In this document: piece after piece, positions 881 through 7,134 of the stretch
Layout: each line of letters starts with the position of its first letter
How positions within the stretch are numbered: the first letter of the stretch is position 1
NCBI GenBank assembly: GCA_034780895.1
Contig: JAUZTB010000001.1
Location: forward strand, 99,975,199-100,039,198
Length of the DNA: 64,000 bases
Direction of reading: 5' to 3'
From: Rhynchobatus australiae
Taxonomy: Eukaryota
Translations under genes and position numbers: made by a program
The notes under the pieces: model-generated
Database searches by the model: none
What the model was told of the DNA's origin: nothing
What the model saw: only the letters and a program-made list of their open reading frames with translations

Positions 881-3800
881 GAATGATGACAGGTGGAGTA
901 ATTTGTGCAGCTTTATAAATGAATCAAAGAAAGTTTATAAGGCTATTGGGATCCTAAATCATATGCTTGCCTGTTCTGCATGCTAGAAAGAGTGGGGTAT
1001 GGGGGGTGGGTCACAGGTGATTTAGTTAGGGTTTGGTGTAAGCACAAATGGGGAACCATGCATAGTTTTGATCTCCTTATCAAAAGAACAATGTTCTTCC
1101 CCAACAGATCATGCAAAGATTCACCAGATTTTTTTCCTTTGAATGAGCACTTTGTTTTATGAAGAGTGACAGAGTAGAAAGGGTTGCTAGAAAGGAGATT
1201 AAAATATAATTTCATTGGAGTAGATGTTGACTGTTTCCCTAACTGAAGAGTCTAGATCCCTGGTCTTAGGATGAAGGTGTGGACTTTTAGGACTCTCTCC
1301 CTTTCCTCATGACAAAGGGGAGGAAACAGAGGCCTTTGTATCCCTACCGAGAAAAATAATCAAGTTCTTTGCTCTCAGCAGAGCATTACTAATATAGAAT
1401 AATGCACAGAACCAGACCCAGTTTCTTCAGTATCCAGACATAAATAGCTTACCTTTGAAGTTTCTTCAAATGAATGCAACCTCAACAGCCCCCAGGAATC
1501 TGTCCATTGTCCTAATAGCTTTGTTTTAACATGGTAGAAGTTTTGCTTATTGCTGACATGTGATTGTCTGATCCTCCCCATCATTATAGAACAGGAAGTT
1601 CACGAGAGTGTCAGCTCATTTTGAACCTCAGCAACAGTAAGCAGGAGTGCTGGATGAAAAACCTCTTAGGACCTGCAGGAATGTTGTGGGGTGAGATAGA
1701 GGAGATGGGGGGGAAGCATTGTGGAAGTACATCCATGAGAACAGGAGAATCGATCCTCCCCTGCAGTGAGTGGAGGATGTGAATGAACAAGAGACTGAAT
1801 ATAAATGTGAGATGCTTCATTTCAGGGAAGGCTCACTGTGACTGGGTCTCCAATTCACATATTCTAGTTGAGAGATGTGGGGCTACCAAGATAAAAATTA
1901 TGTAGGTTCCCAAAATTAGAATGCAAGGTGATGTAAATCTGGTATCCATGGTGAGGGAAGAAATAGGAATATTCACCAAATGGGCCTTTGAATATTCAGT
2001 GAATACAATTTATTTGGCAGCAGCTCAAATTAAAACTAAAGATAGTATCTTAATTTTAGAGTAACAATGCTGAAAGATTAATGTGGAGATGGTCACTGAA
2101 GACACAAAAATCAAACATGTCCAGATGCAGAATATGGTTTAAAACAATAGGGATTAATAAGCAAATTAAAGTTAATAGAATGTTTATGTGTTCATGGTCT
2201 TAGTCAGGTTAGGCACCATGGAAAATCAATTACTTTCTCAAAGCGATTTCATAAATTGATTGGGTTCTGTACATGTGGTGCAGTAACATTGAAGTTGAAG
2301 ATCCCAGGTGCATTAAGTAGATATTCAAAGATCATAGTAGTTTAATCTTTGCAACTGTAATTTATTTTTAACAAGTGGGAGTTTAAACCTAATCTTGGAG
2401 CAATAAATCATGTTGCTGCCAAACCATTCAGCCATTACCTCTCAGTACAAGTGGTTAAATGGAATGAAGACTGGTTAAATTCAACAAAATAAAGATTGTC
2501 ATTGATCTTAACAGAGGATGAAGCTGCGATAATTTTCTTCTCCCCTTTTTCTTTTAGCCGATATAAAGGTGCAACTTTTCAAATTTCCCAAGAAAATATA
2601 GAGTGGGATGATTAACAGGTAAGTCAATCCATAATTTCCTTTATCTTTTGTGCCATTCAAGGGTTGCCACGAGATGGATGTGCTATTAAAATGATCCAAG
2701 TCTCCAGGAAAGTCAGAGCCATTTGTTAGCCGAGTCCAAATTAACAGGAAGGATCAAAATAGTTCAAACTTTTTTCATAAACTCAGACTGAAACTTTTGA
2801 GAATTGAAGATGATTTCTTTTGACATCAGTTCAATTAGAAGTTAATAACTTTGCTGTCAATGAAACAAGAAAGCTAGGAAGAAATCAACTGTCTGGGTTT
2901 ACCCAGCTAACAAAAACTGATCAGCATTTTATTTTTGGCTAAGCCATTGTTAGTAACAAATGTCCAATAATTCAGGTTTGTGTGTTGTCAACCTTTTTTT
3001 TACATTCAAGACTAAAAATTGTTTTCTCTCCGCAATGCCCTTAAAGTGATAATGGAAAAACAAAAATCAATTTGTTTCCAAGGCAACAAGCCAACCCTAT
3101 TGTGGATCTTATTAACTCTAAGATTGTGTACATTATGCTTCCAGTCTCAGTCTTTCTCCAGATAAACCTAATCTTGGTCAACACACAATAGTGATAAATT
3201 GCTCATGTCGGCTAATCTCACTATGCTGCTTACCTATAAAGTATGTCGACAGGTCAGAGATTACCTCTCTCCAACCTTTTCCAATTTACTGCTGCGCTGC
3301 AAATGGATTATCAACACACTGATGTGAATGTTAATCACTGCTACTCTTACAAACAAATGTCAGGCATGTTATTTATCACAGAATAATGAACTTAAAGCAG
3401 ACCCAGTCTGTTCAAACCACCAAGAAGTCATGAGGGCAACTGCACAGCAGTTTCAAAAACAAGAGGGGCAATGGTAGTGCTGGAGCTTACAAAGAAAAGG
3501 GCTGTAAGACTCCTATGTCTGATTCCAATTCATTACAAAATTATGAAGAAAACTTTTATTAATACAAGTGTGCCAATTTTGCTCATTGTTCTTCCAAATA
3601 AAACAATAAACTGAATTGAGCAGCTGACAGTTCTGAAGGCAGCATTGCCAGGAAAGTAAGTCCTGGACTTACTTCGACCTACTCTAAGTGCAGGACGTGC
3701 TGAGTGACAGATGCCAGTGCATCTGTCATTCTTTTCCATTGATGATTTCATTGTAGAGACCAGTGGCCTCAACATTTCTACAAATTCAATTTCTTCAGTA

Positions 3801-4599
3801 CTGGCAACTGATGCTTTTAATTAATATAACATTAAATGCATGGAACAGAAGTTCTACACACAACATGAAAATCTTCTGCATTTCGCACATTAGTTGCTTA
3901 AACTTTTAATGTCTAGAGCTTATTGTATGGATAGCATTGCAACACAAGACCAAGGTGATGATAAATAATGTTATCAGTTCACTTGGAGTGAGTTCTTTTA
4001 ATGGAGTCCAGCTATTGTTCAATCATGCGTTACTTCAGAGAACAATATACAATTAATCCTTGACCTTGAGAGTATTTGAAACCAGGGAAGAAAGTGGTAG
4101 CATAGTGATACAGTTGTAGAAAACGGAATATATTTTACACTGTGATAAACTGAAAGAATAACTTTGTATTACATTGTACCATCTTCTTTCTTAGTGATAT
4201 TCACATCAAGAACATAAATTGCAATGCATGAGAAAAATGGACTTGGCCAATTGTTATGTTAGAGAAATGCTGTTAAAATGTTTTGTACAGCTCACGTACT
4301 TCATTGATGAAGAATAATTCACATCAAACTTAAATAGAAATATTTTGTAATGTTATTATCTATAATCAAAGATTAAAAATCAAGCATTATGACTGATTAT
4401 TTCCACATTGTTAAAAGTAACCACGTTCAGTAATTACATAATTTGAGAGCGAGGTTATCGTGTCAGTTAGGTTGTGGATAGGTGCTTCAGAAGTGAAACC
4501 ATTTTGTGAAAGGTGAGTAGCATCTTGCATGAACAATTTTCTGTAAAATGGTCTTACAATAATCAGACTAATGTGTTTTGTGAGTGGGAGGTAAAGAAT

Positions 4600-4920
4600 A
4601 AGTTATAACAATGGGCCATTTATATAAATTAACAATGGGCCATTTATATAAAGCACCATTATGGTAACAAATTTAGGTCACATTTTGTGGCAAGGTGTTT
4701 TCTAGGAGCATTACAACAGAAAACTGTTCAATGAAGTACTAAAGAAGTTCTTAGGAGAGTTGGCTGAAAGCTTGTTCACAAAGATGGCTTTTAAAGGAGA
4801 TCAGGAAATACTCAAAGGAAAGAAATCTAGATGTTAGAGCTAAGGCAGCTGAAGACGCAGCAGTCAAAGGGGGAATGATTAAAATCACAAATGCACCAAG
4901 AAGGCAGAACTAGACTAAGA
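4600..4920 (-). mobile_element. Degenerate L2-like LINE 3' end
   Basis: catttatataaagcacc / gaaagcttgttcacaaagatggcttttaaagga / ctaaggcagctgaagac resemble reverse-complement L2 tails; similar to 59330-59900. Confidence 0.45.
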
Positions 4921-5149
4921 TAAAAGAGCTGAAGAGGTTACATTGATTTGGGGGCATGAGCCACTGCAGGCCATCAATTTGTTGCCCAAGCCTGATAGGA
5001 AGGGAAGAAATTTCAACTTTATTTCAAACTTATTCATGAACTCTGCAGCACTGAGCAGATATAATATGAAGCTCTCCTTACACTGCTCTGTAAAATGTTT
5101 TATTTCAGCAATCCATTCCCATCTCATGCACAGCTGGAACTTCGACTTT

Positions 5150-6240
5150 TTACAGAGTCATTGAGTTGTGCAGAAAAGGGCCTTTTGGCCCACCACATCC
5201 ATGCCAACTTTTTTTCCCATCTACATGAATACCACTTGCCCACATTTAGGTCTGTATCCTCCTATGTCTTGCCTATTCGAGTGATTATCGAAACTTCTCT
5301 TAAATGTAGTGATTGTATCTGATTCCACCACCTCCTTTGGCAACAAGTTCCAGATATCAAACATGCTCGGTGTAAAAAAAACTTACCCTTCAAATCCTCT
5401 TCAGAACTCCTTCCTCTCACCTCAAAGCTAATCCCTCTTGTTTTTGATACCCTTACCACGGGAAAAATATTTTGACTATCTATCCTATCAATGCCCCTTA
5501 TAATTTTGTATGTTTTTATCAGGTCACTCTTCAACCTCCTTCGCTCCAGAGAAAAGAAGTCCAGCCTATCCAATCTCTCCCTGTAACTCAGGTCCTCCAA
5601 TCCAGGCAATATCCTGATGAATCTCCTCTGCATCCTCTCCAGTGCAACCAAATACTTGCTGGAGTGTGGTGAGCAGAACAGTGCATAATACACAAAATGC
5701 AATCTAACCAGTTTTGTAAAGCTGCAACATAATCTCCCAACTTTTATATTCCATGCCCCGACCTAGGAAGGCAAGTATGCCTTATGCCTTCTTCAGCACC
5801 CTCTCAATCTGTGTTGCCACTTTCAGGGAACTATGATCCTAAGGTCTCTCTGTTCATCAACATTCTCAGTGCCTTACCATTTACTGAATACTTCCTAACC
5901 CTATTAGACTTCACAAAATACATAACCTGCCTAATCTTTGCCAGAACATGCTGTCCCTGAACTCCTGCCAGCTCTCTTTTAAAAGACTCCCACTTCTCTG
6001 CCATTGTTTTACCCACAATCATATGTTCCCAATCTACTTGATCTTCTCTTGCACTATTGAAAATAGCCTTTCACCAATTCATGACTTGAAACTTACAGAA
6101 TTATAGTCACTGTTCCCAAAGTGTTCCACCACTGATACTTTCACCACCTGCCCAGTTTCATTTTCTAAGATAAGCCTGAGTACTGCTGCATCTCTGGTGG
6201 GACTATATTGTCTCAAAAAACTTTCTTGAACGTACCTAAC
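5150..6240 (-). mobile_element. CR1 (HER1-like) LINE, degraded ORF2 C-terminus and 3' UTR
   Basis: ORF 5262-5702 ALERMQRRFIRILPGLEDLSYRERLDRLDFFSLERRRLKSDLIKTYKIIRGIDRID is the classic CR1 ORF2 C-terminus; further remnants to ~6240. Confidence 0.92.
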
Positions 6241-6545
6241 AAATTCTTATGTCCAAATATCTAGGCAATCTAGACTGTTCATTAAGAATGAATCAAAGTA
6301 TTTTCCATTATTATATCATGCCTTCTGGTTGGAGTGTCTGCATCCAAAATCTTAAACATTTTGAGAGAGAGGACCTTTTTTGGTCTTTAGCTCAGTTCCA
6401 ACAACAAAATGCACCTTAACCACTGTGCTCTACAGGCATAACAACTCTATAAATTATAAAATTGCAATGATTTTCATTTATTTTTAAAGCACACACACAC
6501 AAATGAACAAAATGTCTTATCAACAAAACTCATAATTGGTCTTAC

Positions 6546-6730
6546 CTCTTTTTCAAACAACATTACCAAATATTGGTGAAGTCATCATTAACACTCTAGA
6601 GCTTTTGAACATGTTCAGCTGGGACACAACATGAGTTACATCATGATGCACAACAGGAGTGACCATTAATCTAGTTTAGATAACCTTTGTCTTTATGCTA
6701 CATTCAGTTGAGAAAACAGACATGTTATTT
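6546..6730 (-). other. Candidate poison (PTC) cassette exon in NOVA1 intron 4
   Basis: Branch point CACUAAC (A at -20), pyrimidine tract cauuuugccuuuugucag, exon begins AAA UAA, strong donor GAG|guaaga; 185 nt. Confidence 0.45.
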
Positions 6731-7134
6731 CTGACAAAAGGCAAAATGGTTAGTGAAGGGAAAACTGGAAACAAAAAGGCACAGAGACAAGGATGTATAC
6801 TCTGCTCTTACCAGAGACAGTCAATCAGTTAAAGCAAAAGCCTACAATACTGCAGGCAGAAGTTCTATAATAAGCAGCATCATACTTTTGCTGTGGNNNN
6901 NNNNNNNNNNNNNNNNNNNNNNNNNNNNNNNNNNNNNNNNNNNNNNNNNNNNNNNNNNNNNNNNNNNNNNNNNNNNNNNNNNNNNNNNNNNNNNNNAAGC
7001 AGCATCATACTTTTGCTGTGGAATTAGCACTCCAGTCTAATCTAAAGCTAGTTATTAACATATGTACCTGTTACAAAATATTCAAGTCCAGGAAAGGCCT
7101 CCTTCCCAGCGTGGCTGCACAATGTTCTCTATAC

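Follow-up and report, generated by a model that had tools for sequence, protein, structure and literature searches.

A conserved candidate acceptor in intron 4 of NOVA1 from Rhynchobatus australiae may open an unproductive exon

Unproductive (poison) exons in the genes of splicing factors are a well-known and commonplace class, and NOVA1 is a dosage-sensitive gene that is central to motor-neuron splicing. In human NOVA1, an NMD exon of 102 nt lies between exons 2 and 3 (chr14:26549679-26549781), and its inclusion goes up by 0.14 PSI on cycloheximide (PMC13078869, available part). A cryptic exon of equal size occupies the same intron in mouse (chr12:46766290-46766391; PMC8797253, available part). 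A NOVA1 poison exon was also validated by RT-PCR according to the available part of bioRxiv 10.1101/2025.06.26.661736, and this exon may bear on the novelty of the element described here. Human intron 4 contains a last exon, the IPA event ENSG00000139910.20_7, with its upstream edge at chr14:26470490 (PMC12586162, Suppl. Table 3); in the available part of the scheme of that source an event coordinate may mark either end of the annotated exon. On TDP-43 knockdown the values for this last exon change from 0.044 to 0.066 and from 0.062 to 0.144 in two data sets, the full-length last exon drops by 0.06-0.08 in the knockdown sets, and the intron-4 event is filed as non-cryptic (PMC12586162, available part). 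The NOVA1 mRNA level was unchanged in three TDP-43 depletion sets in the available part of PMC9381448.

Our literature search, which left most subscription papers outside, gave no report on a poison exon in intron 4 of NOVA1 from any fish. No NOVA1 intron-4 NMD exon is listed in those brain tables of human and mouse that were searched, the supplements of PMC11632617 (one file) and PMC7347940 (eight files) that were searched do not contain NOVA1, and the available parts of PMC10359595, PMC9381448 and PMC13542418 are silent on this exon.

The stretch of DNA analysed here, called the window, has a length of 64 kb and carries two coding exons on the minus strand; exons 1, 2 and 5 fall outside.

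12656-12490, minus strand: NOVA1 exon 3 (end of KH1 and linker), phase-0 end
7244-7173, minus strand: NOVA1 exon 4, 72 nt (24 residues), a known autoregulated cassette, phase-0 end

The exon-3 codons 12654-12490 encode 55 amino acids that share 100% identity with NOVA1 of several sharks and at most 98% with bony-vertebrate NOVA1 among the matches listed. These peptide matches together with exon 4 identify the gene as NOVA1 of a cartilaginous fish and place the candidate in intron 4. A scan for related loci with exon 3 gave three loci (two short contigs of 85-87% identity and one weak match), none of them candidate-like. The distance to exon 4, initially given as ~440 nt, is 442 nt as assembled. 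This figure includes a 100-N gap (6897-6996) that is flanked on both sides by an exact 25-nt duplicate (6872-7021) and may be an assembly artefact, so that the true distance may be 317 nt.

The candidate and its surroundings comprise the following features.

6814-6806, minus strand: donor-like CTG/GTAAGA, 7/9 U1 match, 81 nt above the acceptor
6766-6765, minus strand: upstream second AG, preceded by its own pyrimidine tract
6755-6749, minus strand: CACUAAC branch point, also an SF1/QKI motif, branch A at 6750 (-20)
6748-6731, minus strand: pyrimidine tract and AG acceptor, AG at 6732-6731
6730-6546, minus strand: candidate 185-nt unproductive exon (splicing predicted), opening AAA TAA, Lys-stop at 6730-6725
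6548-6540, minus strand: candidate donor GAG/GTAAGA, junction 6546/6545, 7/9 U1 match
6501-6490, minus strand: (UG)6 run, donor 45 nt upstream, surroundings rich in U/G; no other run of (TG)5 or longer in the window
6482-6477, minus strand: AATAAA, ~64 nt past the donor, followed by U/G-rich sequence

Every letter and coordinate that the initial annotation had quoted for the candidate exon and its signals is present in the sequence, and exons 3 and 4 do end in phase 0, as it had stated; the AATAAA and the donor-like site had gone unmentioned. The candidate is not the mammalian intron-2 NMD exon, since it measures 185 nt and follows exon 4, whereas the latter has 102 nt and lies upstream of exon 3. 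Both are stop-bearing cassettes of the same gene, the splicing of the candidate being predicted. The mouse intron-2 exon primers have no match in the window at 3 mismatches, and neither primers nor a size scan revealed a clear counterpart of the 102-nt exon in 12657-64000; this counterpart may have diverged or lie outside the window.

The acceptor has canonical spacing, with the branch A at -20 and no AG between branch point and acceptor. The combination of YACTAAC, a tract with a pyrimidine share of 75% or more and YAG is present once in sense and never in antisense in the 64 kb, and the single match is the candidate acceptor. With the branch point relaxed to CTRAY, the same pattern is found seven times in sense and seven times in antisense. 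CACTAAC alone occurs once in sense and three times in antisense, and 6300-7100 contains only one ACTAA. By comparison, the donor is unremarkable: scored by plain U1 match count, an equal donor lies 50-300 nt downstream of 18% of random points. At the candidate, RNA structure is at background (z = +0.33; 64 of 100 shuffles fold equally well). Neither inverted repeats in 5800-7100 nor Rfam matches in 2500-7100 were found. A repeat origin was rejected, as no further copy of the candidate exists within the window. Paired with the candidate acceptor, the donor-like site at 6814-6806 would delimit an intron of 81 nt; the site reads GTGAGA in contigs X1 and X6 (see below).

Inclusion after a phase-0 exon was originally said to give Lys-stop at once, and AAATAA at 6730-6725 bears this out. 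Early stops are common by chance, being found within the first two codons at 11.5% of AG sites and within 61 codons at 96%. The stop would lie 179 nt upstream of the next junction. Use of the upstream AG would give FSLH-stop, with the TAA within CACUAAC as the phase-0 stop and a distance of 204 nt. A stop that is farther than 50-55 nt above the last junction marks an NMD substrate, and at 179 nt the predicted transcript falls under this rule. The candidate thus has traits expected of an AS-NMD cassette, namely a canonical acceptor and donor (the latter only average in rarity) and a stop at more than the required 50-55 nt from the predicted junction downstream.

For comparison with other organisms, runs were found via exact 31-mers (search over 6440-6890), and four of the 17 listed were aligned on 6150-6896 at 80% likeness. 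These are X12, X1, X5 and X6; X2-X4, X7-X11 and X13-X17 lie outside the comparison. X1, X5 and X6 each contribute a single contig, belonging to organisms A, B and C, respectively, and their RNA origin is a guess; among the matches listed for 6440-6890 there was no RNA holder. The aligned spans are 6730-6896 (X1), 6634-6790 (X5) and 6662-6815 (X6), and all three contigs share one unchanged block.

6782-6735, minus strand: 48-nt block unchanged in X1, X5 and X6, covering the upstream tract, upstream AG, branch point and main tract

Directly adjacent, a T>C exchange at 6734 is common to the three contigs and remains a pyrimidine, and the AG is kept in all of them. AAATAA is kept in both contigs that reach it (X5 and X6), with the following codons altered. 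The core 6724-6782 shows a single change in each contig (53-59 nt) versus 13-19% difference outside (Fisher p 0.023, 0.018 and 0.0009, values overstated by the exact-31-mer ascertainment, by core bounds set post hoc and by substitutions shared among the three organisms). Since substitutions are common to the three organisms, the evidence for conservation amounts to about one comparison. The X5 contig continues past 6634 but aligns there at less than 80%, and the 3' half of the exon looks less conserved. As the contig alignments stop short of the donor, the UG run and the AATAAA, the conservation is that of the acceptor and the stop. Branch point and AG, whose conservation had been named as a check of the candidate, are thus both kept in three of three contigs, on the acceptor side and with the weight of about one comparison. 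A further 36-nt block upstream of the acceptor (6861-6896) is identical in X1.

Could the arrangement be due to chance, in shark intron DNA that evolves slowly, with conservation apparent from the way in which the runs were found? The donor, the early stop and the YCAY motifs are each common, the runs were ascertained by 31-mers, and effectively one outgroup comparison is at hand. Exact-31-mer ascertainment guarantees some identical block, though neither its place nor its length. The identical block is 48-56 nt long and overlies the branch point and tracts, a position corresponding to 18 of 421 possible 31-mer starts, with 13-19% divergence alongside. We therefore regard chance as most improbable.

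More speaks for a regulatory element or decoy acceptor within the intron, a QKI site with U/C tracts a few hundred nt past the exon-4 cassette, which would tune exon 4 and almost never be spliced into mRNA. The conservation is centred on intronic letters, including a second tract and AG above the branch point, and the contigs seen are all unspliced. Furthermore, no intronic regions of mammalian NOVA1 are more conserved than those flanking exon 4, and ACTAAC is known to act as a regulatory motif in downstream positions (PMC1877881, available part). A QKI site alone, however, needs neither the -20 spacing nor a second tract, an AG or AAATAA, all of which are kept. This explanation is possible, if rather doubtful.

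Transcript data contribute little in either direction. None of the four aligned runs contains a splice junction at the candidate, and no joint or loose end occurs at 6730 or 6546. The X5 and X6 contigs read unspliced across the acceptor. Assembled contigs lose rare forms, and an NMD substrate is expected to be rare; hence the absence of junctions from contigs does not discriminate. X12, the raw RNA run, is uninformative, with seven reads, all less than 90% alike, on the repeat-like positions 6150-6249 and none on the exon. A metagenome scan with the 21-nt acceptor pattern gave no matches. The X1 contig terminates one base past the AG (window position 6730), which could represent the end of an excised intron or chance; it is a single contig.

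The AATAAA at 6482 could turn the candidate into a terminal exon. It would then be an alternative last exon corresponding to that of the mammalian short isoforms, and its product would be a stable KH1-only protein. We take the human intron-4 event to be the exon of the human 181-residue isoform. The human event lies in the same intron as the candidate and truncates the protein after exon 4, as predicted for the latter. Mammalian short isoforms (P0058 and P0140) add an 8-residue tail that starts with Lys, KHNISWIS or similar, and on degenerate back-translation of this tail, position 6730 ranks 6th of 440 AG sites in the analysed part of the intron. In the controls, however, equal scores were reached by 22-30 of 1200 random AG sites and by 12-16 of 136 AA-starting sites, and the rodent tail is at background; homology of the candidate with the mammalian exon is thus weakly hinted at. 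The AATAAA followed by U/G-rich sequence and the rise of the human chr14:26470490 event on TDP-43 knockdown (PMC12586162, available part) would also fit a last exon. On the other hand, the edge of the human event is ~1.83 kb past exon 4 (which ends at 26472319), compared to 0.32-0.44 kb here, and an annotated shark last exon matches position 3039 instead.

The protein catalogue speaks to the same alternative. Among 278 database NOVA proteins, 88 carry the end of exon 4, and 63 of these continue with sequence other than exon 5. None of the 88 stops at a lone Lys, and none starts FSLH, the product of the upstream AG. The set includes two complete clusters dominated by sharks and rays (15/15 each) and 15 of the 85 members of a tetrapod cluster. 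This argues against an abundant KH1-only product of this acceptor in annotated sharks and rays, and the KH1-only protein envisaged in the initial annotation was not borne out. Taken together, a last exon at this position appears very unlikely. Gene catalogues usually leave NMD cassettes untranslated. Absence from the protein catalogue is consequently not counted against such a cassette and is in fact a prediction of it.

Other sites in intron 4 also have truncating potential. Behind an AG at 3040 (minus strand), the frame 3039-2950 shares 71% identity over 28 residues with the last exon of Chiloscyllium NOVA1 short isoforms (P0151 and P0153; E 1e-10), ranks first of 440 on back-translation and is accompanied by AATAAA at 2933. 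It may represent a second exon of intron 4 that truncates the protein, supported by annotation in a shark. AG/GTAAGC at 3233 (minus strand) resembles a recursive splice site in shape. It ranks at 2-11 of 440 with four shark short isoforms in which exon 4 is followed by VS-x-stop; ray short isoforms also begin with VS and fit it poorly (ranks 31 and 103).

Regarding regulators, control by NOVA through YCAY motifs of the exon had been proposed and found no support. The exon has four YCAYs (6662, 6646, 6634 and 6579), that is 4 per 185 nt compared with 1.9 per 100 nt on average over the window, and the density over 6900-6400 is 1-3 per 100 nt against the same mean. No YCAY cluster lies in or beside the candidate exon; a dense one (8 per 100 nt) is instead found at 7200-7101 by exon 4, the neighboring cassette whose autoregulation is attributed to Dredge 2005 in the available part of PMC1877881. 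Exon 4 preserves the frame, in contrast to the stop-bearing candidate without YCAY enrichment.

For QKI the situation is more favorable. QKI competes with SF1 and represses exons having ACUAA branch points (PMC13004596, available part), and the candidate resembles these exons in having ACUAAC as the branch point of an alternative exon. The worked example RAI14 has tandem ACUAAC sites, unlike the single site here, and the available text of PMC13004596 does not mention NOVA1. Judged by the motif, this suggests QKI repression through competition with SF1 at the candidate branch point. The (UG)6 run, correctly placed ~45 nt past the donor in the initial annotation, provides the UG repeat near a splice site that is typical of TDP-43-repressed exons and is a possible TDP-43 or CELF site.

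We therefore cautiously favor, as probable, an exon in NOVA1 intron 4 that is normally skipped and starts at the conserved 3' splice site; its inclusion would lead to one Lys, a stop and NMD. SF1 and U2AF would use CACUAAC, tract and AG as a 3' splice site, with inclusion after exon 3 or exon 4 at a low rate. The donor at 6545 would join exon 5 and the transcript, with its stop 179 nt upstream, would be degraded and stay rare. The likeliest gate would be competition of QKI and SF1 at the ACUAA branch point, and the downstream UG run may act as a second, weaker brake via TDP-43 or CELF. If the donor is missed, AATAAA at 6482 could end the transcript. The second regulatory switch that had been postulated thus retains an unusual, conserved acceptor and a predicted NMD substrate upon inclusion, with no support for NOVA control via YCAYs or for the KH1-only protein.

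A bolder reading equates the candidate with the human intron-4 last exon, of which it would be the version in cartilaginous fish. The two would then be one truncating switch dating from the origin of jawed vertebrates, with QKI (in glia and progenitors) on the branch point and TDP-43 on the UG run capping NOVA1 beside the exon-4 loop of NOVA itself and the intron-2 poison exon. We consider this decidedly unlikely. If true, the 8-residue tail of mammals would have arisen incidentally, when a small indel altered an ancient stop exon, and would not be a protein end under selection.

NOVA1 already has a poison exon in intron 2. The candidate is another element and would be a new instance of an ordinary class, which makes it only modestly surprising, except if it proves homologous to the human intron-4 exon. 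If the favored reading is true, a second unproductive exon beside exon 4 would show other RNA-binding proteins setting the NOVA1 level and would provide a testable link from QKI or TDP-43 to NOVA1.
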